From an uncultured virus (IMG/VR IMGVR_UViG_3300044646_002851) (lineage: Duplodnaviria > Heunggongvirae > Uroviricota > Caudoviricetes): 64,000 nucleotides of DNA. Positions 220 through 38,859 of this stretch are shown here, piece after piece. How positions within the stretch are numbered: position 1 is the stretch's first letter; each line of letters starts with the position of its first letter. The position numbers and the translations under genes are program-made. The notes under the pieces were generated by a model, which ran no database searches, was not told the DNA's origin, and worked only from the letters and a program-made list of their open reading frames with translations. The stretch is from the IMG/VR virus record IMGVR_UViG_3300044646_002851. One strand, 5' to 3'.

Positions 220-1314
220 TTACTTTTTTGAATTAAAACCTAAATGTTTCATATCATGATTTACTCCAGAAAAAGCCAATTTTCTAGCAAGTTCCATATC
301 TTTTTTATCACCTTTGACCCATTGTTTGTACATCATATTCCATCTAGGATCTTTTATTTTTTGTGCCATATCTGTAATTGATGTGCCTTGTGGTAGTGGC
401 TTCCTATGCCTAGATTTATCGTATGCGTTTTTTATAAGATGATTTATAGTATTTGTAATTTCACCATCAGATAATGATTTCATTACTTCTTGATTGTATT
501 CAATTTGCTTTATTACTTGACTACAAATCAACTCAGTTTCAGAACTTCCATGCACATCAACTCCTTCATCAGAAGCCATTCCCGAAAATGCTTTTTTACG
601 ATCAACTGGAACAATTTTAAGTTTTGCAATAAAATTATCAACAACTCTTTTTATATCTGGACCTGCATTTTGATCCTTGTAATGAAGCACTAATGTGTCT
701 CTGTGGCTTTTAGCAACATCCTCATCGTTTGCAATTTTAAAAGAAAAATACACATCTTTCAATTTTGTTGTTTTATCAAACTCCGAAGGAAGGAATTTAA
801 CGCTGTCGATAAAACTTTTATGTGAATTTGGTTCAATTGTCCAAAACCATTTGTGAGATTGAAATTGTGTGTCTTTAGGAATCGTTTCGATTTTCCAAAA
901 TTGAGTCCATCCTTTAAATTCTTGTGCTTTCCAAGAAACTTGGTTGTGTAAGTTGACATAATTTATTGCATCTAATCGCATCTTTTTATAATCGCCATCA
1001 TTAAATTTGTCTTTTATTTTGACAGTGTCATAATCTTCTCTAGTTGTTATGTATTTGTACAAAGCGTCTTTTAGATCTTTGTTAAGTTCAGCGTATCTTT
1101 CTAATTTTTCATCTACATCAATACCCGCATCAATTTTATCTTTAACTTTGAACTGCCATTTCATTATATCTATGACTTCTTTTAAGTGATCAGATTTACT
1201 TTTATCTTCGAAATAATTTTCGTTTACTTTGCCTTCCAATATGTCGTAATATTGATTCTCTGTAATGAGACCAGACAAGTAAAGCATGTAATTCGGGTTA
1301 TTTTTATTGTACAT
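220..1314 (-). CDS. Hypothetical protein with the same N-terminal module; central region weakly HopA1/phosphothreonine-lyase-like
   Basis: Start moved to M14 (ATG 1314), which matches the start of the neighbouring gene; HKWFWTI...FSFKI...HRDTLVLHY pattern. Confidence 0.6.
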   Translation of the reverse strand: MYNKNNPNYMLYLSGLITENQYYDILEGKVNENYFEDKSKSDHLKEVIDIMKWQFKVKDKIDAGIDVDEKLERYAELNKDLKDALYKYITTREDYDTVKIKDKFNDGDYKKMRLDAINYVNLHNQVSWKAQEFKGWTQFWKIETIPKDTQFQSHKWFWTIEPNSHKSFIDSVKFLPSEFDKTTKLKDVYFSFKIANDEDVAKSHRDTLVLHYKDQNAGPDIKRVVDNFIAKLKIVPVDRKKAFSGMASDEGVDVHGSSETELICSQVIKQIEYNQEVMKSLSDGEITNTINHLIKNAYDKSRHRKPLPQGTSITDMAQKIKDPRWNMMYKQWVKGDKKDMELARKLAFSGVNHDMKHLGFNSKK

Positions 1315-2551
1315 TGAAGAAATTATCCTTTTCCATTCGATCAAGTTTATCACTTATATCTTTTCCTTTTAATCCAAAGTGTGCGACATCTGCACCAGAG
1401 TATTTAGGCTTATGTTCAAATAATCTCTTAGATTCATCCTCAAATCCGAAATGACTCATGAATGGTTCTATGGACTTATAAGGAACTCTCTTCATTTCTC
1501 TGGATATGTCATGAATTTTGTAGTCGTGGCTCATTGGATTCTTGAACATGTTATATGCTTTTAAAATTATGATCGCAGGAGTAAGAACATCATATTCGAA
1601 CTTGTACTGTATCAACATATCAGACAGTTTCTTATTGGGAGCTTCTTCACTGAGTATGTAAGCAATCATAGCAGGAAGATCGTTATTCATTTGATCCAGA
1701 GGTTCCAATTTTGAAATTTTTATTCTTTCTGGCATGATGTTGTGAATGAGATCCAATTCTTTTAAAGACTTGATAAAATTAGCTGGAGATTTACTTTGCT
1801 TCAAACCAGAAATAAATTCCTTGTTGATTCTTTCCTTGCTGACATTTTCTAAGTTCTTGAATTCGGCTATTGCCATTTTGGTCTTATCGTCAAGATGACT
1901 CATTATATTGTCATCATTGTATCTGTTAAAGAATCTAACCACACGCAAAACTCTAAGTTTGTCTTCGTAGAATCTCTGGAATGGATCTCCTACTACACTT
2001 GTGTGTTTGTTCTTTATGTCTTCGATACCTTTTCCGTGATTATAATCTCTTACTTTTTTGTTTATCGTATCATAGAACAAAGCATTGTAGTTCAAGTCTC
2101 TTCTTTTAGTATCTTCTTCTGGTGTCGCTCCAAATTCTGTTTTTTCTGGTATTCTTGAATTGCCAGAATATACTTCTTTTCTGAAGGTTGCTATTTCAAA
2201 TTCATCTTTCTTCTTTCCTTCCATGTCTTTGACAATGATGGAAAGTACTCCTTGGTCTATTCCCTTCTCGAATATTTCTAATTTAAATCTTCCATTGGCT
2301 ATGGTTGTATTGTGGATTATTTTTCTTGTTTCTTCTGGAAGTGCGTCTGTGGCTAGGTCGTAGTCGTTTATGTCTTTTTTCATGTCGTGGAAGTGATTAA
2401 AGAGATGATCCCTTACAGCACCACCGACTACATAGCAGGTTTTGCCATGTGCTTTCATGATGTGTGCTATTTCTTCTAGTTCCTCTGGAACTGACATGTG
2501 AGTGTCTATAGTTTCTAATTCTTCAGATATTAACCATTGTTTAAAGTTCAT
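1304..2551 (-). CDS. cca: Class II tRNA nucleotidyltransferase (CCA-adding enzyme), no HD domain
   Basis: YVVGGAVRD, DYDLAT, EIATFR, EDTKRRDLNYNAL, RFYEDKLRVLR, VSKERI motifs; N-terminus MNFKQWLISE. Confidence 0.9.
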   Translation of the reverse strand: MNFKQWLISEELETIDTHMSVPEELEEIAHIMKAHGKTCYVVGGAVRDHLFNHFHDMKKDINDYDLATDALPEETRKIIHNTTIANGRFKLEIFEKGIDQGVLSIIVKDMEGKKKDEFEIATFRKEVYSGNSRIPEKTEFGATPEEDTKRRDLNYNALFYDTINKKVRDYNHGKGIEDIKNKHTSVVGDPFQRFYEDKLRVLRVVRFFNRYNDDNIMSHLDDKTKMAIAEFKNLENVSKERINKEFISGLKQSKSPANFIKSLKELDLIHNIMPERIKISKLEPLDQMNNDLPAMIAYILSEEAPNKKLSDMLIQYKFEYDVLTPAIIILKAYNMFKNPMSHDYKIHDISREMKRVPYKSIEPFMSHFGFEDESKRLFEHKPKYSGADVAHFGLKGKDISDKLDRMEKDNFFNVQ

Positions 2552-7746: not shown

Positions 7747-8337
7747 CTATTTTTTAACAAACACCAAAAAGTAAGAATGAAATTTTCTCGCATGTTTCTG
7801 AATCTTGTGATTATGACCAACTACTCTAGTTTTAGCAACAAGAATGAATAGATCTTTTGTATAAAATCCATTTTTTTCAGCTTCATTCATGATGTGTACA
7901 TGGCTGAACCATTGTTTGCCACTACTGACAGTATCTTGACATTTAACAATCAAAACACCATTAGTTTCCAATACTCTATAAAATTCCTTAATACAGAGAT
8001 CATACCATTCCCACAGATCGGCAATATATTTGAATCCATGAAATCTAGTTCCCATTATGCCTGTTGGCTTGTCTTTTGTATGACCGACAATGAATGGAGG
8101 ATCAAACATCAATGATTTTATACTTGAATCATTTAATGGCAGTGTGCTGGCATCAGATTGAATTGTGTCTGGTGTTTGAGGGAATGCATCGAATTTAAAT
8201 TCAGGCTTGGCGATTAAACTTTTTTCATAAAAATTGCCTTTAGAATATGTTGGGTCACATTCTATTCCTTGTGGACAATGCAATGAAATTATATCTTTTA
8301 TAATATCATGCTGATTGTCATTGACTGTTTTGATCAT
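7747..8337 (-). CDS. Putative DNA adenine/N4C methyltransferase
   Basis: CDPTYSKGNFY and MFDPPF catalytic motif; HARKFHSYFLVF; start at M7 overlaps the upstream stop (ATGA). Confidence 0.7.
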   Translation of the reverse strand: MIKTVNDNQHDIIKDIISLHCPQGIECDPTYSKGNFYEKSLIAKPEFKFDAFPQTPDTIQSDASTLPLNDSSIKSLMFDPPFIVGHTKDKPTGIMGTRFHGFKYIADLWEWYDLCIKEFYRVLETNGVLIVKCQDTVSSGKQWFSHVHIMNEAEKNGFYTKDLFILVAKTRVVGHNHKIQKHARKFHSYFLVFVKK

Positions 8338-22969: not shown

Positions 22970-23045
22970 GCGAGGATAGTGTAAAGTCAGCACAGGATTT
23001 AAACCAAAGTCTTAGTGGCGGTTAAATTCCGACCTCCTCGCTCCA
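22970..23045 (+). tRNA. Non-canonical tRNA-Gly-like gene (ACC in an 8-nt loop), CCA encoded
   Basis: Acceptor GCGAGGA/TCCTCGC + U73 + CCA; D-stem GTGT/GCAC; anticodon stem GGATT/AGTCT with loop TAAACCAA; T-arm GGCGG-TTAAATT-CCG(A)CC. Confidence 0.75.
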
Positions 23046-24553: not shown

Positions 24554-24617
24554 CTTTAATCAACAGTTATTTTTTTTTTTCATAAAATAAAATACATTTA
24601 ATTGACTTATATAAATT

Positions 24618-25904: not shown

Positions 25905-26651
25905 TTATTTAGGCAAAGAAAACAAATTATTTACAAGTTCCTTTGTGTTTAAATCAGGATGAGCAATTCCTTCAGATCTTTTATCGACACGATGATGAGG
26001 AAAATTTCTATTTATAAAGGAGGATTCATCGGCATTGTCATATCGTAGATGTGCCGTCAATCTAACTTTATCAGAATTATTACATCCTGATCTATGAATC
26101 AAAAATGTGTTAAATATCAATATGTCTTCACGATCCATAACAACTGGAACAAACTTACTTTCATCGAAAGAAGATTCACTCAAAACTGTATCATCCTTTT
26201 GCTCTAAGTTACCAAATAAATGACTTCCGGGAATTACTTCTAAATATCCCATAGATTCATCTAGTTGAACTAAAGGTATCCAAACAGTAACTCCATCTAT
26301 ACTTCCTTGCATAGATGGCCAATCTTGATGTGCTGGTACTTTCCAATACATGTCATTCTTGGCGAGATTTTTATGGCTATAAGAAAGCAATGGTCTTGTG
26401 TTAATGACTGGATTTTTTAAACCCAAGTCTTTAACAATATTGACAATTGATGGTAGAGTTATAAGTTTATTCACAGAAATCAAATATTGGCTTATATTTG
26501 CTGCTCCTAAAAAACGATTAAAATCATTTTGATAAATTTCAAACAAATCAATTTTAAACAAATTGTGAATATCATTTGCGATTTCATTTAAAAGCTTTTT
26601 TTTGATAGCTTTTTTTACTAATAAGTACCCATTTTTCTGGTAAGATGTCAT
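25905..26651 (-). CDS. PhyH-family 2OG-Fe(II) dioxygenase
   Basis: PAHQDW, TVWIPL, LEVIPGSH, LIHRSGCN...RL. Confidence 0.9.
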   Translation of the reverse strand: MTSYQKNGYLLVKKAIKKKLLNEIANDIHNLFKIDLFEIYQNDFNRFLGAANISQYLISVNKLITLPSIVNIVKDLGLKNPVINTRPLLSYSHKNLAKNDMYWKVPAHQDWPSMQGSIDGVTVWIPLVQLDESMGYLEVIPGSHLFGNLEQKDDTVLSESSFDESKFVPVVMDREDILIFNTFLIHRSGCNNSDKVRLTAHLRYDNADESSFINRNFPHHRVDKRSEGIAHPDLNTKELVNNLFSLPK

Positions 26652-26686: not shown

Positions 26687-27268
26687 ATGATGAGAAATAT
26701 ATGTGTAATAGGTGGCACTTCGAATATCGGAGAGGTGATTTGCAAATCGCTTTCTGATTCTTACAATGTAGATAAAACCAATTCTTTGACATGTGATGTT
26801 CGTGATGAAAAAAAAGTTATTGATTACTTTCAAGGAATTGATTCGCTTTATGGTCTTGTTTATTGTTCTGCTTTAAAAAGCGAATATGACGCATTAGATG
26901 ATCCAAAAGAACTAGAAAGACTTCTTTCTGTCAATTTATTTGGTGCAATTTATTGTTTACAACAAGCAGCAAAAAAAATAAAAATAGGAAAAATAGTTGT
27001 CATTGGAAGTGTTGATGGAACATTTGGTAATTATAAAAAAACTATGTACGCTGTTTCGAAAGCTGCGCTGCATGAATACACAAGATGTTTTGCCTCTCAA
27101 GTGAAAGATAGAATTGAAGCAATTTGTCTTGTTCCCGGCACAATATCTAGCGATAATGACAAACAGGCAATTGCCAATTTCATAAAGTGCTTCATGGACA
27201 ACTCAATAACTAATATACACGCACAACTAATTAGAATGGACAAAGGAAACCATACATTCCCATTATGA
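26687..27268 (+). CDS. SDR-family oxidoreductase
   Basis: VIGGTSNIG, VNLFG, S...YAVSK; start moved to M15. Confidence 0.88.
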   Translation: MMRNICVIGGTSNIGEVICKSLSDSYNVDKTNSLTCDVRDEKKVIDYFQGIDSLYGLVYCSALKSEYDALDDPKELERLLSVNLFGAIYCLQQAAKKIKIGKIVVIGSVDGTFGNYKKTMYAVSKAALHEYTRCFASQVKDRIEAICLVPGTISSDNDKQAIANFIKCFMDNSITNIHAQLIRMDKGNHTFPL

Positions 27269-28047
27269 ACTGGAAATTTTTAAAAAAATATTTGTCTTTT
27301 GAATTTGAAAAATATGGCTATAAAAGTCATGTTCAATTACCAACTTTTCACGATGGCTGGTTATATTTTGGCATTCGAAACAATGAAAATATAAGCCACA
27401 TAGCAAGAATTAAAAATGATAATTTCGAAACATTTTTAAGTCCAAATTTTGATTTTGACAAAAAAGGAATTATGCCTTCTTGTTTTTGTGAAGATGCATT
27501 TTTTTATACTGGATTTGTAGAACAAAAAAACAATCATTACACACAAAACATTTGTGTTTTAATTGAAGGTTCTAGATACTGTGTATTAACAGCAGAGCAA
27601 GATGAAAGCTTTTTGGTGAATTCTGCATTTGTTATAAATGATAATTCAACATATAAGATGTGGTATGTTTCTGGTTATGATTGGGTTGGAAAAAAGCCTT
27701 TGTATAGAATAAATTATGCAGAGTCTAAAAATAAAATTAATTGGGATGTGATAAAAAAGAATGTCATTCCTAAATTAGATTCATTTGAATCTCCTTCACG
27801 ACCATTTGTTTTAAAGACGGGAAAAAAATATGAAATGTATTTTTCCTCTATGAATTTAAATTCAAAAAGTAATTATAAATTGCAATATGCAGAATCTAAT
27901 GATTCTCTGAATTGGGAAAGAGAAAAGATATCAATCGCAACTGAAGAAAATATGCTTTGTTATCCTTTTGTTTTAAATAGAAATTTTATGTTTATAAATG
28001 GGAGTAATTACGGAGAAAAAACTATACTTTTATATGAAAGAGAATAA
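27265..28047 (+). CDS. Beta-propeller glycoside-hydrolase-like protein (GH32/43-like) of glycan clusters
   Basis: SHVQLP; repeated MWY...YRINYAES and MYFS...YKLQYAES...W blades; YPFV...NGSNYG. Confidence 0.6.
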   Translation: MNWKFLKKYLSFEFEKYGYKSHVQLPTFHDGWLYFGIRNNENISHIARIKNDNFETFLSPNFDFDKKGIMPSCFCEDAFFYTGFVEQKNNHYTQNICVLIEGSRYCVLTAEQDESFLVNSAFVINDNSTYKMWYVSGYDWVGKKPLYRINYAESKNKINWDVIKKNVIPKLDSFESPSRPFVLKTGKKYEMYFSSMNLNSKSNYKLQYAESNDSLNWEREKISIATEENMLCYPFVLNRNFMFINGSNYGEKTILLYERE

Positions 28048-28049
28048 TT

Positions 28050-28835
28050 ATGCTTCACAATCATGAAGTGCCAAACTATATGCTCATAGGTGTTCGTAAG
28101 GGGGCGACAAGTTGGATTTGGAAACAGTTAGATCAACATCCAGATATCGAAACTCATCCCAAAAAAGAAATACATTTTTTCAATAAATTTTACCATAAAG
28201 GAATTGCTTGGTATAAAAAACAATTTAAATGGAAAAAAAAAGTAATTATAGATACCACACCAGACTATTTCGAAGAAACTTGTGCAGAAAGAATAAAAAC
28301 CCATTTTCCGAAAATTAAAATGATGGTTTCTTTAAGAAATCCAATAGAAAGAGCTTTTTCTCATTTCAAATTCGCCAAATTTTTAAACGCAACAAAATCA
28401 AACTTTAAAATACTGTGGAAAAAAGACTGGCTACAAATACGAACAAGAGGTTTGTATGATAAGCATCTTTATTGTTTTTATGATAGATTCCCAAAACAAA
28501 ATTTGTTGATCATGTTTAATGATGATATAAAAATAAATAGTGAAAATTTTTCAAATAAAATGTATGACTATATGAATGTCACAAGAATAACAAGTGAATT
28601 TAGAGATATGCGTTGGATGCCCGGAGAAAATACTTGTTGGACAAAAATAGAAGGTCAAAAAAAAGATTATGAAAAAAGATATGAAAAATATAAAGAATAC
28701 AATAAAAAAGAAATTTTAAACAATGATGATTTCAAAATGATGTGTGATTATTACGAAGAATCAATTAAAAATCTAGAAAAGATTGCAAACAGAGATTTTT
28801 CTAATTGGTTAAAAATAGAAAATATAGAATGCTAA
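28050..28835 (+). CDS. PAPS-dependent sulfotransferase
   Basis: IGVRKGATSW (5'-PSB), KEIHFF, LRNPIERAFSH (3'-PB). Confidence 0.9.
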   Translation: MLHNHEVPNYMLIGVRKGATSWIWKQLDQHPDIETHPKKEIHFFNKFYHKGIAWYKKQFKWKKKVIIDTTPDYFEETCAERIKTHFPKIKMMVSLRNPIERAFSHFKFAKFLNATKSNFKILWKKDWLQIRTRGLYDKHLYCFYDRFPKQNLLIMFNDDIKINSENFSNKMYDYMNVTRITSEFRDMRWMPGENTCWTKIEGQKKDYEKRYEKYKEYNKKEILNNDDFKMMCDYYEESIKNLEKIANRDFSNWLKIENIEC

Positions 28836-29647
28836 CCAAAAATTAATTTCATTCTATCGTATAAATCTTTGCAAACATGATCAGGATCATATTCCCATAG
28901 TTTTTTATTATAAACACCAGCATTAACAAATCCGTCAAATTCAATACTCTTAGCAGTCTTAGAAAATTTATACAAATCAATTTGACCATCTAATGGCATG
29001 ACTCTATTTCTGTCCATATGCATTTCTCTGTTAATATTTTTATCTGCGTCACTTATGTGCAAAACTGATATTTTATTTTTATCGTATCCCAAAAAATCGT
29101 CCGCTTCTCCTCCGCTTTTCCACAAATGATAAGAGTCAATAATCATAGTTCCTTCTGCATTTACATCATCAATAAATTTTTTACATTTTAAAAATGTATC
29201 AATCTGTTTTGTTTGACCCATAAATTCTATACTTGGCAAACATCCAATTGATTTTCCCAATTCTAAAAGTTCATTAAAATAATCTACACCTTGTTGCCAT
29301 GAACCAAAATGATTGCGATGACTAAAGGCTGGTGTTGCTATTATCCACTTTGCATTTATGGAAGCAGATAATTCCATTCTTCTTTTGCATTCATCAATAA
29401 TGTCTTCATGCTTATCAGAAACGCCCATTAACTCTCCATCATTTTCAAACCATCCTACGATTTGTTCGACTGCTGGTATCTGAATATTATGATCTTCACA
29501 ACATTTTACTATGTCTTTCGAATTTTTAAATTTCAATTCATCAATCCAAGGTTCAATAGCAACAAATTTATTTCTACTTGCAATTTTTATTTTTTCAAAA
29601 ATATCAATATCAAAAGAAAGCATAGCTGTATTAATACAAAATTTCAT
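28832..29647 (-). CDS. Sugar-phosphate isomerase/epimerase (xylose-isomerase-like TIM barrel)
   Basis: IEPW, SIEFMG, IDSYH, LHISD, RVMPLDGQID. Confidence 0.85.
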   Translation of the reverse strand: MKFCINTAMLSFDIDIFEKIKIASRNKFVAIEPWIDELKFKNSKDIVKCCEDHNIQIPAVEQIVGWFENDGELMGVSDKHEDIIDECKRRMELSASINAKWIIATPAFSHRNHFGSWQQGVDYFNELLELGKSIGCLPSIEFMGQTKQIDTFLKCKKFIDDVNAEGTMIIDSYHLWKSGGEADDFLGYDKNKISVLHISDADKNINREMHMDRNRVMPLDGQIDLYKFSKTAKSIEFDGFVNAGVYNKKLWEYDPDHVCKDLYDRMKLIFG

Positions 29648-30429
29648 ATTTTTCTACCCATCCAAAGTTGTTGTTTGAAATCAACCAAGTTAAATTTTTT
29701 AACATCACCAGTATAAGTCCGATTAGGACAAAATTTGTCTATCGATCTACCCATGTCTATAAAAGAACACTCTTGGTTTGTAGTTTTAAATCTAAGATTA
29801 TAGACAAGCCAAGCAGAAAATAATTCTCCAGCCTGTATAAGTACATATTTTTTCCCGTGAGCATTAACAATCTTCAAAATATCATTCATAACTTCTAATC
29901 GTTTTTCATTTCTAGATGAATCAAAAAATAATTGATAAAAATTAAAATTTGGAAATTCCAATGTAATTTTCAATTCCTTTAAATGATCAAACCCAACAAC
30001 AATTACTTCATTATTTTTAATGTGATCAAAAAATTTACTTATAGTTTTATCGAGTACATATTTTTTCCAAATACCTCCAAAGTGTGGTTGGTATTTTTCC
30101 GGTATCGATTTAATGATAATTTCTTCTAATTCTTCATGTATTTTTTTATTGGTTTGATAAGGGTCATCATCATTAACAGCCAATATAATATCCGTCTTAT
30201 CTATGTTTTTTATAATTTCCTTTACTTCATCAATTAATTCTTTGTCATGATGTTTTTTGAATTTTGATTCCCAAAATTGTTTTCCAGCCAATAATTGCCA
30301 CCATGCATGATTCATTTTTATGAAATGTAAATTTTTATTTTTTATAATATCAATATAATATTCAACCTTAGGTGCGAATACCTTAACAATACCTCCTCTA
30401 AGAACAAAATTATGTTCGATTTTTAACAT
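29644..30429 (-). CDS. Hypothetical protein (weakly GT-D-like)
   Basis: VIVVG, LIQAG, FIDMGRSID; located in the glycan cluster. Confidence 0.5.
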   Translation of the reverse strand: MLKIEHNFVLRGGIVKVFAPKVEYYIDIIKNKNLHFIKMNHAWWQLLAGKQFWESKFKKHHDKELIDEVKEIIKNIDKTDIILAVNDDDPYQTNKKIHEELEEIIIKSIPEKYQPHFGGIWKKYVLDKTISKFFDHIKNNEVIVVGFDHLKELKITLEFPNFNFYQLFFDSSRNEKRLEVMNDILKIVNAHGKKYVLIQAGELFSAWLVYNLRFKTTNQECSFIDMGRSIDKFCPNRTYTGDVKKFNLVDFKQQLWMGRKI

Positions 30430-30437
30430 TTTTATCC

Positions 30438-31091
30438 TTATATTTTAACTTCGCTAATTTCTTTTGTTCTTTTCGCTGGAATACCCATATAAACACCCCC
30501 TTCTAAATCTATACTTTTAACCACGGAAGCACTTTGCCCAACTAATGTATTTGGTGCAATACTTATAGAATCACGAATTGTAGAACTAGATCCAATAAAA
30601 CAAAAATCTCCAATACTAATGTGTCCTGCAATATTGCAATTACTTGATATAAAAACATTATTACCTATTTTGCCATGATGACCAACATGAGTTAAAGACC
30701 AAATAATATTGTTGTCTCCAATTTCACAAAATGGTTGAATGTTAACATTTTCAAATATGAAACAATTTTTTCCTATTTTTGAATTGCTTACAGTAGCTGA
30801 ACTATGAATGTAAGTAATAAATTCATAACCTTTTTCTTTTATTTTATTACAAACATTAAATCGCAACTTATTCATTTCTGATGCATAAAGTGGTGCAAAA
30901 AATTGATGATTATCTTTTGGATATGAATTTTCTATTTCTTCAAAAGGAACGACTGGAAGTCCACAAAAGTTATTTTCTTTGATATAGGCTCCATCCAAAC
31001 AAAAAGCTACAACCTTATGGTCAGAATCATTTGTAAGATAATAATGAGCCAATTGAGACATATCACGATTTCCAAATATAACAACATTCAT
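30438..31091 (-). CDS. NeuD/PglD/VioB-family sugar acetyltransferase
   Basis: N-terminal Rossmann-like domain, hexapeptide repeats, HVGHH, YMGIPAK. Confidence 0.9.
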   Translation of the reverse strand: MNVVIFGNRDMSQLAHYYLTNDSDHKVVAFCLDGAYIKENNFCGLPVVPFEEIENSYPKDNHQFFAPLYASEMNKLRFNVCNKIKEKGYEFITYIHSSATVSNSKIGKNCFIFENVNIQPFCEIGDNNIIWSLTHVGHHGKIGNNVFISSNCNIAGHISIGDFCFIGSSSTIRDSISIAPNTLVGQSASVVKSIDLEGGVYMGIPAKRTKEISEVKI

Positions 31092-31101
31092 CTAAAGATC
31101 C

Positions 31102-32004
31102 TTATTCGGTCCACTTGCAATCTTCTGGATTAATACAGAGCCAATCAGAAACGACATCTAATTTTTCTTCAAATTCATTATAAGCCAAATTGCATTTTTT
31201 CAATTTCAACTTTCGAAATGATTCTGGCAAACTTTTTAAATTGTTTGAGTAAAGGCTAATTTGTTCTAAATTTTGAAGATCGCCAATATTTTCTGGTAAC
31301 TTGCATAATTTATTTTTATGAATTCTCAAAGCTTGAAGACTTTGCAAGGCACAAATACCATCTGGTAGATAACGCAATTTATTTGCAACTAAAGACAACC
31401 ATTTTAATTTTTTCCATTTGCAAATATCATCTGACAATTCAGTTATCTTACTCAAACCCCAAGAAAAGAATTCGATGTCTGGAAGTGAAAATATAAAATT
31501 TGGAATTTCTTGAATTTGATTCAAGTATAAATTTAAAAATTGTAACTTCTTACAACCAAAGATGGCATCGACATTAGTCAATTTGTTCTTATGAATCTTT
31601 AGAACTTTTAATTCTTTAAATTCAGATATCCAATCTGGAATAGATTCCAAATTGTTGACCCCTAAATTAAGATATGACAAATTACAAGATTTAATCCATT
31701 CTGGAACTTCACACATATAATTAGATGCAAGATCTAGATGTTCAATATTTGGCAAATCCATTTCTGGAACAAAACTCAATCTATTTTTTCTTAGATTCAA
31801 TGACTTCAAACTTTTCAATTTATTGACGAGATGTAATACATATTCTTTTTCAATTCTAGGGAGTGTTCTGAATGAACCAATAAAAGTTTCATCATTACTG
31901 GTAAAATCAGCTTTTATGCATCTGTCCATTTCAGTTGTGAATGTAGCAGATGGAGCATATCTTACGATTTCTTCAATGATGTCTAAATCAGACATGTATT
32001 CCAC
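31102..32004 (-). CDS. Leucine-rich-repeat protein
   Basis: About 9 LxxLxLxxNxLxxLP repeats. Confidence 0.9.
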   Translation of the reverse strand: MEYMSDLDIIEEIVRYAPSATFTTEMDRCIKADFTSNDETFIGSFRTLPRIEKEYVLHLVNKLKSLKSLNLRKNRLSFVPEMDLPNIEHLDLASNYMCEVPEWIKSCNLSYLNLGVNNLESIPDWISEFKELKVLKIHKNKLTNVDAIFGCKKLQFLNLYLNQIQEIPNFIFSLPDIEFFSWGLSKITELSDDICKWKKLKWLSLVANKLRYLPDGICALQSLQALRIHKNKLCKLPENIGDLQNLEQISLYSNNLKSLPESFRKLKLKKCNLAYNEFEEKLDVVSDWLCINPEDCKWTE

Positions 32005-32731
32005 CCTTTACCAACCATCTCTCTCCTAAAAATGCTGTTCTGCCATGAAGAAGTTCTTCGTCCTTGAAAAATAAAGCTTCGCCAAACTTAAGTTTTACAG
32101 ATTGACATAAATCTCCACCAACAATGTAAGATTCTAAGAAGTTGTGAAATTCATTTCTAATAGGAACATCATTGCACCTGTAATAATTCCATGTCAACTT
32201 ATTGTCTGACAAAATTGGTCGTGATTTGAAATCATCTCCCTTACTATGAATTACTTCTGTATTTTTAATTTTATTCAGCAGTTTTTTATCGTATATTTCA
32301 ATATATTTCTTTAATTCTTCAAGCAAAATAAAAGTTGTGCTGCCGCCATATAAAGATTCTTTCATGCAAAAGAAATATGTTGTGTTTGGAGCTTTAGACT
32401 CATAAGAACCATCGGTATGCAATGGTTGCCTAGTGTTGCTATAACTAAAGCTTTCGCTTTTTTTATTCGAAGGATATTTAATGTCGGTAAATAAACTACC
32501 TGTTTTATTTCCTTCTGAGTCTTCTTCCATAGGAGCAGGTTTTCCGATTCTTTTTGCACATTCCGACCAATAGTCAGAAATAGAAAATGATTCATCAGAA
32601 AAAATATAAGATAAAAGCATTCTGTTCGGCTTCACATGAATATATTTAACATCATCTTCAAGCAAAGCATCTTGAATATAATGTCCTGCAATAATTGGAT
32701 TCTCAGGAATTGCGATTTCGCAGTGCTTCAT
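31988..32731 (-). CDS. TauD/TfdA (CAS-like) 2OG-Fe(II) dioxygenase
   Basis: PLHTDGSY, GGSTTF, LLHGRTAF..RWL. Confidence 0.85.
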   Translation of the reverse strand: MKHCEIAIPENPIIAGHYIQDALLEDDVKYIHVKPNRMLLSYIFSDESFSISDYWSECAKRIGKPAPMEEDSEGNKTGSLFTDIKYPSNKKSESFSYSNTRQPLHTDGSYESKAPNTTYFFCMKESLYGGSTTFILLEELKKYIEIYDKKLLNKIKNTEVIHSKGDDFKSRPILSDNKLTWNYYRCNDVPIRNEFHNFLESYIVGGDLCQSVKLKFGEALFFKDEELLHGRTAFLGERWLVKGGIHV

Positions 32732-33128
32732 ACAAACCTTCCTTCCATTTGTTTAATGCATCCCACCGAACAACAGGAATAACATCCAAAGAAAAACCAG
32801 AAAAAAATTTATTCCATCTCAATGAACGCAAATGTTTTTCAATAATGATTTTAGATCCAAATGTGAAATCATCATATCCATAATAGTTTCCTATTTCGCA
32901 AATAACAAAAAATTTATCATTCAACTTTATATTCAACAAATAATCTTCCATATCATGAGGCAACTCTTCGTCTCCATATGTTGGACATATAAACAATATA
33001 ACATCTGCCCATATAGTCGGATTATCTCTTACAGATTTAACTTCGCCATCAAAGTGAAATGCAATATCTTCAGCAGTCTTCTTATTGGAGTCGTAAATTA
33101 TTTGCATTTCCATAAAACAAACTTTCAA
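32703..33128 (-). CDS. Flavodoxin-like protein
   Basis: IIYDSNKKTAEDIA, CPTYGDEELP, EIGNYYGY. Confidence 0.75.
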   Translation of the reverse strand: MKVCFMEMQIIYDSNKKTAEDIAFHFDGEVKSVRDNPTIWADVILFICPTYGDEELPHDMEDYLLNIKLNDKFFVICEIGNYYGYDDFTFGSKIIIEKHLRSLRWNKFFSGFSLDVIPVVRWDALNKWKEGLYEALRNRNS

Positions 33129-33708
33129 TAATTGAAATAGGATCTTGATAACTTGTATCTATAAAATTTAATTTAATGCCATTTTCTTGAAATTTAATCT
33201 CATCATATAAGGATCTACCTCCGGGCAAATTACAATATTCATCAGCTTGAAATAATTTACACAATTGTAAGATTCTATCTTCGCCTTTTTTATCAGAAGG
33301 ATAGTTGCTAGAAAATTCAAATGCTGTTTTGACATTCAAAATTTCAGCCACCATCTTTAAAGAATCACAATTCAAGTGCGATAACATATCATATTTTTCA
33401 TAATCTTGATAAGACCGAAATACGATATTTTCTTTTATTTTATTCCCATACAGATGAACGAAAGATTTTAAGTGGCTATCTACCCATCCATGACATATTG
33501 AAATTTCATTTATTTTTGCAAATTGATATGCTTTGTTGATTGGTACTGTAATATATGTTGGTGTTTTTTTATTGATCTTATTTCGGTTAATCCATCCTCT
33601 TCGGATATATTGAACATCATCCAAAAAAACAAATAAGTCAACATTAGCCATAAGCTGAAAATATCCAGCATATGGAAAAAAATATGGCTGCATTATTGCT
33701 AATTTCAT
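33082..33708 (-). CDS. WbqC-like protein (proposed glycyltransferase family)
   Basis: MKLAIMQPYFFPYAGYFQLM, FVFLDDVQY...WINRN, Y.NLPGG..LY. Confidence 0.92.
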   Translation of the reverse strand: MKLAIMQPYFFPYAGYFQLMANVDLFVFLDDVQYIRRGWINRNKINKKTPTYITVPINKAYQFAKINEISICHGWVDSHLKSFVHLYGNKIKENIVFRSYQDYEKYDMLSHLNCDSLKMVAEILNVKTAFEFSSNYPSDKKGEDRILQLCKLFQADEYCNLPGGRSLYDEIKFQENGIKLNFIDTSYQDPISIIESLFYGNANNLRLQ

Positions 33709-34298
33709 TTTATTTTGAATTTTTTGGATAAGTCTGGATATTCTGGTGATCTAATTTCAAAATCTTTAAGATATGAAGCCAAAACTAAGCCCCTAGAAGC
33801 TTGCTCAGGTGTCATATACATATTCCAACCAACCATATCAAATACTTCTTGCTCCATTAAAGGAATTTCTTCCCTGCCTTCGTATCTTGCTCTTTTAAAC
33901 CATTTTGCCGCCTCTACATTATCAGTAAATATCATCCCGCCTTTTCCTATATTTAAAATTTTATTAGCACTAAAAGAAACACATTGGAATGTTCCAGAAG
34001 CATACATATTTCTTGCAAGTTTACATGCGGAATCATAAATCGGGTAAGGTTTAAGTTGATATGACCCTTCCCAAGTATAATCTTCAAACTCAACCTCTGC
34101 TCCGGCATGAATGACTACACATGGAACCGAAATATAAGTTCTAGATGGTAAAATTACCTTTTTTGCTTTTAAGTAATGTAAACAAAGAAATAGTGCATTG
34201 GTACAGCTATCGATAGCAACAGCAAAAGGGCTATTTACAAAATGTGCCATTCTTTTTTCAAAATCTTGGACGACATTATATGGATTCATAAAATTCAT
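33705..34298 (-). CDS. Short DegT/DnrJ/VioA-type PLP-dependent sugar aminotransferase
   Basis: DSCTNAL, PSRTYISV, YDSA, SFSANK..IGKGG (PLP lysine), GWNMYMT; start moved to M17 (M20 also possible). Confidence 0.85.
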   Translation of the reverse strand: MNFMNPYNVVQDFEKRMAHFVNSPFAVAIDSCTNALFLCLHYLKAKKVILPSRTYISVPCVVIHAGAEVEFEDYTWEGSYQLKPYPIYDSACKLARNMYASGTFQCVSFSANKILNIGKGGMIFTDNVEAAKWFKRARYEGREEIPLMEQEVFDMVGWNMYMTPEQASRGLVLASYLKDFEIRSPEYPDLSKKFKIK

Positions 34299-34384
34299 TA
34301 TATACAAATTATTTTCATTGTTAAAGATAATATTTGAAAGAATCATTCGTAAATAGATTTATAATATTTTTACGAGGATTTTTT

Positions 34385-36349
34385 ATGGCTACTTATTCTT
34401 TTTATGAATTTTCTAATTACAAAAAACGATCTGATGTTTTTGCTTTTTTAGATTCTTACTCTGGAACAATCAACGAATCTGTTCTTCAAGAGCTTTATAC
34501 CAATTTTGGCTATGATGATGTCGTAAATGAAGCTTGGGGTGATTGGTTGAATAAAGCCAAAGGAATGGCACAAAATGTAGCAGCAGGAGCAGCGAATGTG
34601 GTGGCAGGAGCAGTTAAAGGTGCAAAAGATTTTGGACAAGGGTTCGCACAAGGGTCACAACAAGGTTATAAAGACACAAGAACCGAAGAAGGCGTAAAGA
34701 AAATTGAGAATATAGCAGCTAAAGTTGGCGAACTTAGCAAAGCATTTACCCAAAAATATAAGATTGATCCAGTTACAGCAGCTATCATCATTTCATCTGG
34801 TGCAACTGGCGGTCTTGGTGCAATACCAATGACGGCATTAGCAATTGGATTAAGAAAAGGTAGTGCTTGGCTTGCTGGTAAAGGTATGGATGCAGCTTGG
34901 AAAAAAGCAACTGGGAAAACACCAGCAGAATTAGATCAAATGTGGCAATCAAAAATTAACGCTCCTAAGGCAGCACCAGCAGCGGCTGGAGCAAAGCCAG
35001 CAACTCCACCACCAGTTCCAGCAGCGGGAGCAAAGCCAGCAGCACCAGCACCAGCACCAGCGGGAGCAAGACCAGCGGGAGCAAGACCAGCAACTCCACC
35101 GCCAGTTCCAGTAGCAGCTGGAGCAAGACCAGCCGCAAAACCAACAGCACCATCTTCTGATCAATTCCATTACGAAATGTTTAAGAGACCAAAAACATCA
35201 TTTGCTACTTTCCTAGAAAATAAAGATGCCGATTTATATAAAAATATAATTGATGAAGGAATGTGGGATAATGCAAAAGGATTTTTAACTGGTGCTTTAA
35301 ACAAGGGTGCAGATATAGCTAAAGGTTATGCCAAAGATATTGGAGATCAAGGATTTGCAAAAGCAACTGGATCATTGGTTGGTAAAGGTGCTGGTCAAGC
35401 TGCGGGAACTTTTGTGAACTTAGGTTCTGTTCTTGGAAGTAGTTTGAAAAATGCAGCATCGTTTATGGCTAACAATCCTGTCAAAACAGGAACAATGATG
35501 ATGGCTATTGCTGCTGGATCTATGATTGGAAGCTATGGAACTCAAGCAATCAATGGTTTCATTAACAAACCATCTCCAGATCAAGTTCAAGAATTAACTG
35601 CAGTCGCAAAACAAGCTGGAGTTCCAGACAGCGAAATACAATCAATGCATCAAGATTCTGGATATTCTGGTAGTGGTGGTGATTTTGGCGATGCTAATGA
35701 TACCGCATCTTCTGGAACTGGTGGCGATTTTGGTGCAAAAGACACTTCATATTCTGGTAGTGGTGGCGATTTCGGTGGTGGCAAAAACATTCCAGATAAG
35801 CGATGGATTGATAGCGATGGAATTGAAGATAGTAGCACGACTGCTCCGGGTGCAGGAGAATACCTACCTAAAAATGCCCAAGACACTTCGTATTCTGGAA
35901 CTGGTGGCGATTTTGATACCTCATCTTCTGGAACTGGTGGTGATTTTAGTGCAAAAGACACTTCATATTCTGGAACTGGTGGCGATTTCGGTGGTAGCAA
36001 AAACATTCCAGATAAGCGATGGATTGATTCGGGAGATGATACTACGGGTGGAGGAGAATTTATACCATCAAAAGACACTCAAACTTATTATGCAAATAAA
36101 GATACTAATTATAAAACAATGCCTACTGTTGGTAGTCCAGAAGACATTGCAATGAAAAAATCTTTTTTACCAAATAGTGATAATCCCGATTTTATAACTA
36201 CGCCTCCTGAAGCTGACGATTTTATACCTAAAGATCGATCCTATACAGGTAATTACAATCAAACGCCAAAGGTAGGAAAGGCAGGAGATGCTTGGGCAGC
36301 TGCAGAAAGAGCCAAAGATGCTGCAAGAAGATCTTATTTTGGTAACTAG
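34385..36349 (+). CDS. Large low-complexity protein with Ala/Pro-rich linker, GGDF repeats and CTS-like segments
   Basis: Start at M18 behind GAGG SD; MATYSFYEF, internal TSFATFLE; hydrophobic Gly/Ala-rich helices. Confidence 0.7.
   Translation: MATYSFYEFSNYKKRSDVFAFLDSYSGTINESVLQELYTNFGYDDVVNEAWGDWLNKAKGMAQNVAAGAANVVAGAVKGAKDFGQGFAQGSQQGYKDTRTEEGVKKIENIAAKVGELSKAFTQKYKIDPVTAAIIISSGATGGLGAIPMTALAIGLRKGSAWLAGKGMDAAWKKATGKTPAELDQMWQSKINAPKAAPAAAGAKPATPPPVPAAGAKPAAPAPAPAGARPAGARPATPPPVPVAAGARPAAKPTAPSSDQFHYEMFKRPKTSFATFLENKDADLYKNIIDEGMWDNAKGFLTGALNKGADIAKGYAKDIGDQGFAKATGSLVGKGAGQAAGTFVNLGSVLGSSLKNAASFMANNPVKTGTMMMAIAAGSMIGSYGTQAINGFINKPSPDQVQELTAVAKQAGVPDSEIQSMHQDSGYSGSGGDFGDANDTASSGTGGDFGAKDTSYSGSGGDFGGGKNIPDKRWIDSDGIEDSSTTAPGAGEYLPKNAQDTSYSGTGGDFDTSSSGTGGDFSAKDTSYSGTGGDFGGSKNIPDKRWIDSGDDTTGGGEFIPSKDTQTYYANKDTNYKTMPTVGSPEDIAMKKSFLPNSDNPDFITTPPEADDFIPKDRSYTGNYNQTPKVGKAGDAWAAAERAKDAARRSYFGN
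35655..36030 (+). repeat. In-frame S-G-[ST]-G-G-D-F repeats plus a 107-bp near-identical duplication
   Basis: 35706-35812 versus 35922-36028 (offset 216 bp); six SG[ST]GGDF units. Confidence 0.9.
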
Positions 36350-37371: not shown

Positions 37372-38859
37372 ATGGCAGATAATCAACTTTGGTCATGGGG
37401 AGAGGGAAATGGAGGACAATTAGGAGATGGAACGGAAGTAAACAAATCGTCTCCTGTTCAAGTCTCTGGTTCCAACTCCAACTGGAGAAGCGTTTTTAGT
37501 GGTATTTTTCATACTGTTGGCATCAAAAAAGACAACACCCTATGGATTTGGGGTGCTAATTATGCAGGACAATTAGGAAATGGAACCATCGACAATAGCT
37601 CGTTACCGATACAAATTGGAGAATCTAATTGGAGCCAGTCTTCATGTGGCGCTTTCCATACAATAGCAATAAAGACTGATGGAACGCTATGGTCTTGGGG
37701 CGAAGGTTCGTTTGGCGAACTCGGAGACGAAACAACAACAGATAGATCTTCACCAGTACAAGTCGGCAACCAAACGACTTGGAAGCAAGTTTCGAGTGGT
37801 GTTTTTACTGTTTCAGCAATAAAGACCGATGGAACGCTTTGGTCTTGGGGCGAAGGTCTTTCTGGACAAGTAGGGAACGGAGAAACAGGAGTATGGAGTT
37901 CGCCAGTACAAGTCGGCAACCAAACGACTTGGAAACAGGTTGCTAATGGCTATAATCACACCGCAGCAATAAAGACCGATGGTACGCTATGGGCTTGGGG
38001 AGAGAACGAATTAGGTCGATTGGGAGATGGAACCCAAACAGACACATCGTCTCCGATACAGATTGGGAACGAAACAAACTGGAAGCAAGTGGATTGCGGA
38101 GCCTCACATACCGCTGCGATAAAAACGAACGGAACTCTTTGGGCTTGGGGCGAAGGTACGAATGGACAATTGGGAAATGGACAGACAAATTCTTTTTCTT
38201 CCCCGATACAGGTAGGAAACGGAAGCAATTGGTCGAAGGTTTCCTGCGGATCAGACTTTACCTGTGCTGTTAAGACCGACAAGACCATGTGGGCTTGGGG
38301 AGAGAATTATAATGGTAAATTGGGAGATGGAACCACAGAAGACAAATCATCACCAGTCCAGATAAGTGGCGACAAATATTGGGGAGATGTGGATTGTGGC
38401 TCTTACCACGCCATGGCTATAACTGGAAATACTCCAGTAAGGTTCAATTTCATACATCCGACTTATAAATTCGAAGTGGTAACATATACGCCAGAAAGCC
38501 TTATAGCTCTGGCTCCTTATCCAGACTCATTGGAGCATCTAACGCTGAACTTTCAGGCTCAGGAAGTAGTCATCAACAACAGAAGGTATAAGCATGGAGA
38601 TCAGTTCACGGAATCAGGATCAAAAGCCATACGAATCAAACAATTGTATGTTGATTCCAGCGATCCAGTACTGAAGATAGTTTGTGATGCTGGTTACAGA
38701 TTTGAGAATAATAGATGCGTTCTTGATTGCCTTGAAAGCGAAACGGCATGCGGTGGCGTTTGCTACGACCTTCTTACCGATAATGACAATTGCGGAGAAT
38801 GCGGCAATGTTTGCGATAGTGGATTTGCATGCGTAGATGGAGTTTGCACAGCAACATAA
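37372..38859 (+). CDS. RCC1/BLIP-II repeat beta-propeller with Cys-rich C-terminal domain
   Basis: Seven ~50-aa AIKTDGTLWxWGxxxxGQLGxG..SSPVQ repeats; CGGVCYDLLTDNDNCGECGNVC tail. Confidence 0.9.
   Translation: MADNQLWSWGEGNGGQLGDGTEVNKSSPVQVSGSNSNWRSVFSGIFHTVGIKKDNTLWIWGANYAGQLGNGTIDNSSLPIQIGESNWSQSSCGAFHTIAIKTDGTLWSWGEGSFGELGDETTTDRSSPVQVGNQTTWKQVSSGVFTVSAIKTDGTLWSWGEGLSGQVGNGETGVWSSPVQVGNQTTWKQVANGYNHTAAIKTDGTLWAWGENELGRLGDGTQTDTSSPIQIGNETNWKQVDCGASHTAAIKTNGTLWAWGEGTNGQLGNGQTNSFSSPIQVGNGSNWSKVSCGSDFTCAVKTDKTMWAWGENYNGKLGDGTTEDKSSPVQISGDKYWGDVDCGSYHAMAITGNTPVRFNFIHPTYKFEVVTYTPESLIALAPYPDSLEHLTLNFQAQEVVINNRRYKHGDQFTESGSKAIRIKQLYVDSSDPVLKIVCDAGYRFENNRCVLDCLESETACGGVCYDLLTDNDNCGECGNVCDSGFACVDGVCTAT

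Follow-up and report, generated by a model that had tools for sequence, protein, structure and literature searches.

The viral record IMGVR_UViG_3300044646_002851 (IMG/VR; uncultured, Caudoviricetes) carries a gene cluster built around a protein of the WbqC family. In this study, we analyzed a 64,000-nucleotide stretch of this record, referred to below as the window, and focused on this cluster and on a tRNA-like element some distance from it; an initial annotation had proposed that the two act together in an N-acetylglycyl-amino sugar pathway. The window is AT-rich (about 30% GC) and densely coding. Gene names rest on Pfam and NCBIfam profile searches, and PHROG was used for phage functions. 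Eight genes lie head to tail on the minus strand between positions 28832 and 34346, each overlapping the next or no more than 10 nt from it:

33705-34346, minus strand: mini-DegT, a short pyridoxal phosphate (PLP) sugar-aminotransferase-like protein (PF01041, 6.7e-23, 81.9 bits)
33082-33708, minus strand: WbqC family protein of 208 aa (PF08889, 1.4e-50, 172.6 bits), with a 4-nt overlap with the DegT gene
32703-33128, minus strand: flavodoxin-like small protein, a 141-aa open reading frame (ORF), weak call (TIGR01753, 1.5e-4; Flavodoxin_1, E 0.034)
31988-32731, minus strand: TauD/TfdA-family Fe(II)/2-oxoglutarate dioxygenase-like protein (PF02668, 1.6e-10, 41.8 bits)
31102-32004, minus strand: leucine-rich-repeat (LRR) protein (LRR_8, 1.6e-22)
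30438-31091, minus strand: NeuD/PglB(PglD)/VioB-type hexapeptide sugar N-acetyltransferase (TIGR03570, 7.3e-46; Hexapep, 1.7e-17)
29644-30429, minus strand: 261-aa protein without a family match, 8 nt downstream of the acetyltransferase gene
28832-29647, minus strand: xylose-isomerase-like TIM barrel (sugar isomerase/epimerase-like), the last gene of the operon (PF01261, 1.2e-15)

The curated cut-offs were 21.3 bits for PF08889, 19.8 for PF01041, 27 for PF02668, 27 for Hexapep, 160.8 for TIGR03570, 25 for Pfam Flavodoxin_1 (PF00258) and 123 for TIGR01753; the gathering score of RF00005, used for the tRNA-like element, is 29. The profiles and coordinates bear out the co-oriented cluster of overlapping or abutting genes described by the initial annotation, with its WbqC, VioB/PglD-like acetyltransferase, TauD-like and LRR genes. 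Most of these genes had been rightly named, but the "aminotransferase" is a mini-DegT and the "flavodoxin" falls below both cut-offs (22.2 bits against 123 for TIGR01753; 14.7 bits against 25 for Flavodoxin_1). The operon also extends past the span first assigned to it (30438-34298), since the 261-aa gene and the TIM-barrel gene belong to it. The recurrence of this gene set in 40 viral loci, and in bacterial loci too, puts the cluster far beyond chance.

Ordinary DegT enzymes are two-domain proteins of about 360-390 aa. The window protein measures 213 aa from its first ATG and 197 aa from the probable start at 34298, the start chosen by the initial annotation, which fits the lengths of relatives. 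Its PF01041 match consists of two blocks only, profile positions 22-94 and then roughly 170-260, and alignment to solved sugar aminotransferases indicates that about 35 residues at the N-terminus, about 40-55 internal residues and the whole C-terminal domain are missing. The PLP lysine (SFSANK) and the aspartate (YDSA) are retained and align with SFHATK and YDAAHA of the full-length enzymes. The full two-domain architecture is absent from this protein and from its 35 viral homologues alike. Since these homologues measure 195-223 aa, and all keep the PLP lysine and aspartate, mini-DegT is a conserved short viral family and not a truncated or damaged gene. The profile of this family matches full-length DegT with an hhalign probability of 97.9% (E 5e-13). 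The AlphaFold2 (AF2) model (pLDDT 94.1, pTM 0.91) finds sugar transaminases as its top Foldseek matches (E 3.6e-12, TMq about 0.7 (0.74)) and superposes on GDP-perosamine synthase, ArnB, PseC and DesV. On the strength of this model, we confidently regard mini-DegT as a real compact PLP domain of sugar transaminases.

The WbqC protein matches PF08889 over residues 7-186 (profile positions 1-186 of 218) and contains the invariant residues of the family, Q7, P8, Y9, P12, Y13, G15, Y16, W39, N43, C150, Y158, N160 and G164. An AF2 model built from a 45-sequence alignment reached a pLDDT of 95.0 and a pTM of 0.90. Its best Foldseek match in the PDB is Bacillus subtilis BshC (4wbd; E 1.3e-3, probability 0.99), followed by tyrosyl-tRNA synthetases and pantothenate synthetase. 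BshC stands well above every other structural neighbour, its match extending over 201 of the 208 residues; behind it come class I lysyl-tRNA synthetase (LysRS; 11.4), the glutamyl, tyrosyl and cysteinyl enzymes (GluRS, 8.9; TyrRS, 8.7; CysRS, 7.8) and MshC (7.1), with pantothenate synthetases and cytidylyltransferases at about 7. A second structural comparison, over Foldseek's own top 1000, is in agreement, and neither list has a cyclodipeptide synthase in its first 50 matches. The model shares the BshC fold over the whole Rossmann core, so that WbqC is, as modelled, a compact relative of the Rossmann core common to BshC and the class I aminoacyl-tRNA synthetases. Neither the HIGH nor the KMSKS ATP-binding signature occurs in the WbqC sequence or in the family consensus. 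When consensus motifs were compared by eye, MQPYFFPYxGY of WbqC stood beside GQQAGLLTGPLY of BshC, and DDVQY of WbqC beside DEVNH of BshC, at equivalent places; the alignment, also read by eye, contains a conserved NLPGGR loop after the last Rossmann strand of WbqC.

WbqC differs from its nearest structural relatives in several respects. BshC (4wbd; PF10079), the bacillithiol synthase, is longer, at about 540 aa against the 208 aa of WbqC, and contains insertions and a coiled-coil domain for dimerisation; its acceptor is glucosaminyl-malate (GlcN-malate), not a nucleotide sugar. MshC, the cysteine ligase of mycothiol synthesis, and the class I synthetases have ATP-binding signatures, and the synthetases also have anticodon-binding domains; WbqC has neither. 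According to the passages on BshC in a 2018 review (PMC5790435), the enzyme adds cysteine to the amine of GlcN-malate, had not been reconstituted in vitro, and takes its cysteine from "an unidentified activated form". We found no later in vitro reconstitution of BshC in the literature.

The remaining proteins of the cassette are supported to different degrees. The acetyltransferase passes the Hexapep cut-off (62.7 bits) and falls narrowly under that of TIGR03570 (156.3 bits against 160.8), matching over residues 3-207 of 217. The TauD-like match passes the PF02668 cut-off but spans residues 58-135 only; LHTDGS and a C-terminal LLHGR motif, corresponding to the HxD...H iron ligands, are visible in the translation. 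The 141-aa ORF possibly has a flavodoxin-like fold, and its likelier start is an internal ATG at about 33107. For the 261-aa protein, no family was found in Pfam, PHROG or NCBIfam searches.

Two further genes of the window enter the comparison with other loci:

27265-28047, plus strand: GH130-like protein ("unk260"; weak match to beta-1,2-mannobiose phosphorylase, 4.8e-6)
25905-26651, minus strand: PhyH-family dioxygenase (PF05721, 1.3e-15)

The viral sample consisted of 40 loci with a WbqC relative, among which several are identical copies from different samples, so that the counts overstate independence. A short DegT is present in 35 of the 40 and lies immediately upstream of wbqC in 28; the GH130-like gene was found in 32, the acetyltransferase in 25 and the PhyH dioxygenase in 21. 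The other operon members are rarer: the TauD-like gene occurs in seven loci, the flavodoxin-like and LRR genes in five each, both at the same operon position, and weak relatives of the 261-aa protein in five. The bacterial sample comprised 80 wbqC loci with 8-kb flanks (1.15 Mb), the best 80 of at least 599 confirmed hits; the wbqC ORF was recognised in 77 of them, and neighbour counts were taken over those 77. There, a full-length DegT lies immediately upstream of wbqC in 46 loci and at most three genes away in 54. The second commonest neighbour (39/77) is a family of 321-324 aa without a Pfam or NCBIfam match, followed by hexapeptide transferases (20/77), GH130-like proteins (14/77), the SDR family (11/77) and an AMP-binding enzyme (7/77). 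The GH130-like protein of the window and a 315-aa bacterial wbqC neighbour form one family (hhalign 99.8%). These bacterial loci sit amid polysaccharide genes, namely those for a flippase, an ABC exporter, RmlA, a dehydratase and glycosyltransferases. Among 401 genomes of one phylum, 31 carry the DegT-WbqC-acetyltransferase cassette, at loci with a GC content of 27-70%, and the phylum is probably not Actinobacteria; 30 wbqC loci with 1.5-kb flanks from these genomes served as a second bacterial sample. PF08889 also scored in Caulobacter vibrioides and Bacteroides thetaiotaomicron, two members of a control set. Because the viral and bacterial loci share the DegT-WbqC-acetyltransferase context, the phage operon appears to be a slimmed version of a bacterial surface-polysaccharide cassette of the kind present in O-antigen and capsule loci.

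WbqC also occurs in fused forms. A 66-member Atlas cluster, mostly assigned to Uroviricota, consists of 383-aa proteins in which WbqC is joined to a GNAT domain, and a single protein of 677 aa (P0121) joins WbqC to an ATP-grasp domain. The search for longer forms found no fusion of WbqC with a synthetase or with DegT, and an Atlas feature search gave no usable match outside PF08889. Two long ORFs in GC-rich loci were rejected as artefacts of ORF calling.

In a cultured phage, Vibrio phage vB_VpS_PG28 (MT735630; locus L185, 5324-10589), the genes for a PIG-L/LmbE deacetylase, WbqC, an unknown protein, a methyltransferase, a second WbqC-like protein and a GT4 glycosyltransferase lie between recombination genes and ParB/terminase, and there is no tRNA in the 12-kb locus. 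By analogy, this cassette would mirror the logic of BshA, BshB and BshC. The PG28 cassette and the GNAT and ATP-grasp fusions fit an order of events in which an amine is exposed, aminoacylated and then acetylated.

The function of WbqC can be approached through the bacterial clusters with known sugar structures. When complete genomes of Escherichia coli were searched with wbqC of the window, 23 genomes matched, with two cluster types. In the O121 type, the order is tviB, an epimerase gene, rfbB, rfbA, DegT, WbqC, a 140-aa GNAT, wzx, GT2, a hexapeptide "serine O-acetyltransferase", wzy, asnB and two GT4 genes, and the cluster contains no other activating enzyme. The O121 O-antigen contains 4-amino-quinovose (Qui4N) with an N-acetylglycyl group, as stated in the passage of PMC3210612 that cites Parolis 1997; together with the genome, this is in line with the statement of the initial annotation that WbqC occurs with VioA in O-antigen clusters making glycyl-Qui4N. 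In the O123/O186 type, the order is rfbB, rfbA, wzx, DegT, WbqC, a 324-aa hypothetical protein, GNAT and a MaoC dehydratase, and the O123 sugar is given as 4-{N-[(S)-3-hydroxybutanoyl]-D-alanyl}amino-Qui in a title among the references of PMC7685785. By elimination in O121 and O123/O186, WbqC becomes the candidate for the aminoacyl step, and we propose, by analogy, that it is the enzyme that aminoacylates the DegT-made amino sugar, with N-acetylation next.

The 324-aa hypothetical protein of O123/O186 is a member of the 321-aa family (41% identity) that is common beside bacterial wbqC. This family (e.g., L216 9712-10686 and L067 8696-9661) has a distant likeness to DegT (hhalign 30.8%) and contains a lysine motif that resembles SPRKFFGVPDGG. 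Because O123 (D-alanyl) has it and O121 (glycyl) does not, a role on the amino-acid part of the sugar is conceivable.

The phage operon resembles the E. coli O121/Shigella dysenteriae 7 and O123/O186 modules in the order of DegT, WbqC and N-acyltransferase, in the start/stop overlaps and in the Pfam family of WbqC; the O121 and O123 modules make aminoacyl-Qui4N sugars. It differs in that the carrier is a phage and not a chromosome, that its DegT has only about 200 aa, and that its acetyltransferase is of the hexapeptide VioB/PglD type whereas that of E. coli is a GNAT. In addition, rmlA/rmlB, flippase and polymerase genes are absent from the phage operon, and TauD-like, flavodoxin-like and LRR genes lie inside it.

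These comparisons suggest an auxiliary sugar-tailoring operon in which a DegT-made amino sugar is aminoacylated by WbqC and capped with an acetyl group, a reading that we regard as evenly balanced between right and wrong. In such a pathway, mini-DegT would use PLP to make an amino sugar from a keto-sugar nucleotide, which either the host or another part of the phage genome would provide. WbqC, whose fold is taken from the model, would then link an amino acid to the new amine by an amide bond, and the VioB/PglD-type acetyltransferase would cap the free alpha-amine, by analogy with N-acetylglycyl-Qui4N of O121. The TauD-like, flavodoxin-like, LRR, 261-aa and TIM-barrel proteins may serve in lineage-specific tailoring or targeting. 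Of the N-acetylglycyl-amino sugar pathway originally proposed, aminoacylation followed by N-acetylation is retained, but glycine is an extrapolation from O121 and nothing in the window indicates it.

Several observations weigh against this pathway. Mini-DegT, which lacks a whole domain, may not be a competent transaminase, and profile searches found no sugar nucleotidyltransferase or 4,6-dehydratase among the genes of the window. Sequence homology between WbqC and BshC is not significant: hhalign gave 0.13% against one BshC sequence and a probability of 10.6% (E 0.0029) against a BshC alignment from 30 loci, and a Pfam search (E<=0.01) found the WbqC family alone on the window protein, without PF10079. 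The elimination in O121 is not airtight, since the hexapeptide "serine O-acetyltransferase" is present and the GNAT could perform the glycyl step. Three sulfotransferase families occur in seven, five and two of the 77 bacterial loci (counts that may overlap), and the window contains one sulfotransferase. The single ATP-grasp fusion, together with an ATP-grasp enzyme beside wbqC in 3/77 bacterial loci, could mean that activation is carried out by another enzyme. We found no functional study of any WbqC protein in the literature.

If WbqC is the aminoacylating enzyme, the activated amino acid has to be accounted for, and the initial annotation had named an odd tRNA-Gly about 10 kb away as the donor. 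No tRNA was detected in the window by ARAGORN at default settings, by Rfam at the gathering score or by Rfam at E<=10 over the whole window. Relaxed ARAGORN runs (introns, -ps80/-ps90, mitochondrial mode) gave 19-38 calls, which were mostly spurious, and 22970-23045 alone recurred across modes; this element is most likely the one that had been meant. It is listed here because it had been invoked, together with the CCA-adding enzyme, which is encoded in a window without a canonical tRNA gene:

22970-23045, plus strand: tRNA-like element (RF00005, 19.2 bits)
1304-2551, minus strand: CCA-adding enzyme (tRNA nucleotidyltransferase; PolyA_pol head domain, 4.4e-24; phrog_2244, 5e-40)

The element lies in the spacer ahead of a Dam-type methylase gene. 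The distance had been rightly estimated, since wbqC is 10.0 kb away and the closer edge of the cluster 7.4 kb, but the element is outside the operon and on the other strand, and the genes in between have mixed orientations. Its RF00005 score of 19.2 bits (E 0.093 when 201 nt were searched) is below the gathering score. The 76 nt fold into a cloverleaf as the minimum free energy structure (-23.4 kcal/mol, z -3.33), with 0 of 200 shuffles equal or better. The acceptor stem is a perfect 7 bp (GCGAGGA/UCCUCGC) followed by UCCA, that is, U73 and an encoded CCA; the T stem is bulged, and the T loop is UUAAAUU. The anticodon arm has either a 5-bp stem with the 8-nt loop UAAACCAA or a 7-bp stem with the 6-nt loop AAACCA, and U33 is lacking. 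Relaxed ARAGORN reads the anticodon as "aac", or as the four-base "aacc" in mitochondrial mode. The acceptor and discriminator match the corresponding elements (G1-C72, C2-G71, G3-C70 and U73) of the bacterial tRNA-Gly identity set, which also includes C35 and C36. Of 53 distinct phage tRNAs compared, the closest is a tRNA-Gly(gcc), which is 70% identical. The label tRNA-Gly is thus a reasonable one, though unproven.

A metagenome scan with the acceptor pattern found the element in three contigs only (L182-L184), whose DNA is 91-98% identical to the window. They contain two changes, of which one turns a U-G pair into U-A and the other makes the T loop canonical (UUCAAUU). Because one change keeps the pair and the other restores the canonical T loop, the comparison argues for a real, maintained RNA gene. 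After the T-loop change, the element of L184 scores 22.2 bits with RF00005, still below 29, and ARAGORN finds 0 genes there. L184 keeps both the element and the WbqC operon, but this co-occurrence is uninformative on function because of the 91-98% identity to the window.

Beyond this lineage, the element was not found with WbqC. A covariance model built from the element and run on 39 other WbqC-carrying viral records, of which 3/39 are at least 90% complete, gave no match at E<=1, and none was found in loci L001-L006. The model does pick up a phage tRNA that is unrelated but has the same acceptor stem (40.3 bits). An exact 24-nt search in the viral contigs gave 0 matches, and the acceptor-stem pattern was present there in the unrelated tRNA(cta) of L121 only. 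The latter (8121-8196, minus strand) is a suppressor-type tRNA, called "Pyl" by ARAGORN, whose acceptor stem, U73 and CCA are identical to those of the element, and it adjoins a tRNA-Arg. ARAGORN found tRNAs in five of the 40 viral loci, and in one of these a tRNA-Gly belongs to a tRNA array and is 9 kb away from wbqC; among the eight most complete viral records, a canonical tRNA-Gly was seen in three and not in five, two of which are rated 100% complete. In bacteria, the 80 loci (1.15 Mb) contained four tRNAs, none for glycine and none adjoining wbqC, and the 30 further loci had no tRNA within 1.5 kb of wbqC. The proposed link of tRNA and WbqC did not hold up, as the element lies outside the operon and is absent from the 39 other WbqC-bearing viral records, and bacterial loci are not enriched in tRNA. 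Likewise, the co-occurrence of wbqC with an atypical tRNA-Gly expected across phages is absent beyond the near-identical lineage, as far as the data reach. We regard the element as an independent feature of this phage lineage and not as a demonstrated component of the system. Conceivable identities are a tRNA of the quadruplet or frameshift type, a decoy and a non-ribosomal tRNA.

A proposal in which WbqC is a tRNA-dependent glycyltransferase and the element at 22970-23045 its dedicated, non-ribosomal glycyl donor is not without attractions. In staphylococci, non-proteinogenic tRNA-Gly species feed FemXAB. The presumed glycine-type acceptor with U73 and encoded CCA, the tRNA-Gly(gcc) relative, the preservation of the element in three contigs with pair-preserving and T-loop-canonical changes, the CCA-adding enzyme of the window and the synthetase-like fold of WbqC without HIGH and KMSKS are all in keeping with it, and the abnormal 8-nt loop without U33 would fit a tRNA kept from translation. 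A further precedent is the published operon of atypical tRNA-Pro, ProRSx, GT4, WbqC and LmbE genes (PMC10404621). On the other side stand the 10 kb, the other strand and the position outside the operon, the sub-threshold Rfam scores (19.2 and 22.2 against 29 bits) without a default ARAGORN call, and the restriction to contigs so similar to the window that co-occurrence tells nothing. The model of the element matches 0/39 other WbqC viral records and none of L001-L006, five of the eight most complete records show no canonical tRNA-Gly, the bacterial wbqC loci are not tRNA-enriched (four in 1.15 Mb, none Gly, and 0 in 30 more loci), and E. coli O121 makes its glycyl sugar with no dedicated tRNA in the cluster. 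We consider this proposal very improbable. The broader form, in which WbqC and by extension BshC are a new family of aminoacyl-tRNA-dependent transferases acting on sugar amines, with the element as a dedicated glycyl donor shielded from translation, is just as remote. It is also conceivable that WbqC acts, like MshC and PanC, as an amide ligase that depends on ATP, forms its own adenylate and transfers the amino acid to the sugar amine without a tRNA. The BshC crystal 4wbd contains ADP according to its entry title, an additional activating gene is not required in bacterial clusters such as O121, none of 110 bacterial loci has a tRNA or synthetase gene beside wbqC, and the conserved NLPGGR loop could, from the alignment, bind phosphate. 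However, there is no HIGH-like or KMSKS-like motif in WbqC or in the family consensus, BshC has never been active in vitro, for which the review passages (PMC5790435) blame a missing cofactor, substrate or protein, and the published tRNA-Pro/ProRSx/WbqC operon (PMC10404621) is hard to explain with a self-activating WbqC. We regard such a ligase as rather unlikely. More doubtful still is that WbqC performs no aminoacyl transfer and that the operon makes a plain N-acetylated amino sugar such as dTDP-Qui4NAc, with WbqC taking part in sulfation or other tailoring or acting as a non-catalytic partner of DegT. DegT and a VioB-type acetyltransferase do form a complete known pathway (VioA/VioB, named in PMC7685785), and sulfotransferases recur beside wbqC. 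Nevertheless, both E. coli wbqC serogroups that were checked carry aminoacyl-Qui4N without a sulfotransferase in the cluster, BshC stands well above the other structural neighbours with 201/208 residues covered, and the WbqC-GNAT fusions fit aminoacylation followed by acetylation, so we hold this role to be improbable.

As for the donor in the aminoacylation pathway, we slightly favour aminoacyl-tRNA of the ordinary cellular pool over self-activation with ATP, because WbqC has a synthetase fold without HIGH or KMSKS, as is the case in cyclodipeptide synthases. Each of the two is possible but short of probable. If WbqC is tRNA-dependent, it would resemble the cyclodipeptide synthases, in that its synthetase-like Rossmann domain would no longer activate amino acids with ATP and would use ready-made aminoacyl-tRNA. 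Tentatively, then, WbqC itself may use ordinary aminoacyl-tRNA. A Fem-like enzyme glycylates an amino sugar in a tRNA-dependent manner in BD-12 biosynthesis. The abstract of a 2026 review (PMC12945691) lists Fem/GNAT-fold enzymes, cyclodipeptide synthases, LanB-like PEARLs and synthetase-like enzymes as tRNA-dependent transferases, and WbqC is not named in that abstract. Dependence on tRNA is also kept alive by the fact that the donor of BshC has resisted identification, and by the tRNA-Pro/ProRSx/WbqC operon. In the sections consulted of this JBC 2023 paper (PMC10404621), the predicted operon of Actinobacteria contains an atypical tRNA-Pro (tRNAProX), ProRSx, GT4, WbqC, LmbE and murG, and the authors read the atypical tRNA-Pro as mistranslating, not as a donor for sugar modification. 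The set of tRNA-Pro, ProRSx, GT4, WbqC and LmbE may be seen as a parallel to BshA/BshB/BshC with a private synthetase and tRNA, a comparison that those authors did not draw. The likeness to the phage lies in a WbqC gene occurring with an odd tRNA, there in one predicted operon and with a dedicated synthetase; in the Actinobacteria the tRNA and synthetase are inside the operon, whereas in the phage the element is 10 kb off on the other strand and there is no synthetase gene. Against a tRNA-dependent donor, the BshC crystal contains ADP, the structural neighbours MshC and PanC use ATP, and WbqC occurs fused to an ATP-grasp domain.

The surroundings of the operon are rich in glycosyltransferases, methyltransferases and dioxygenases, and also contain the sulfotransferase mentioned above. 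Among the PHROG matches in the window are those to a tRNA nucleotidyltransferase, a DNA helicase and a sigma factor. Of the records compared, the nearest is a viral fragment of 23 kb rated 5% complete, without WbqC and without tRNA, and a relative with the same cassette is a viral contig of 458,813 bp rated 91% complete. These matches, the low completeness of the nearest record and the size of the relative suggest that the source is a phage with a very large genome.

The close relatives L182-L184 have non-matching DNA at window position 24571, which amounts to an insert of about 1 kb in L184 and to about 0.7-1 kb up to the contig end in L182 and L183. L184 also lacks the SDR gene (26690-27265) and the sulfotransferase and TIM-barrel genes (28049-29593). 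Because of this insert and these missing genes, the tailoring island appears to be modular even inside one phage lineage. Divergent from the operon, a 671-aa low-complexity protein (34334-36349, plus strand) has Ala/Pro-rich stretches and repeated SG(S/T)GGDF motifs and matches no family. Behind it lies an RCC1-repeat protein (37372-38859, plus strand) whose C-terminal domain is cysteine-rich and STIG1-like. Local GC content in this region rises to about 36%.

The case described here is a phage variant of a known, biochemically uncharacterised cassette. This cassette is widespread, with at least 599 confirmed hits in one genome scan, 31 of 401 genomes of one phylum and 40 viral loci. Very large phages are shown here to carry a slimmed host pathway for surface-glycan tailoring, including a minimal DegT of about 200 aa. 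The fold of WbqC without ATP motifs provides a testable hypothesis for how glycyl and alanyl groups may reach the amino sugars of O-antigens, and ties this question to the long-standing puzzle of the cysteine donor of BshC.

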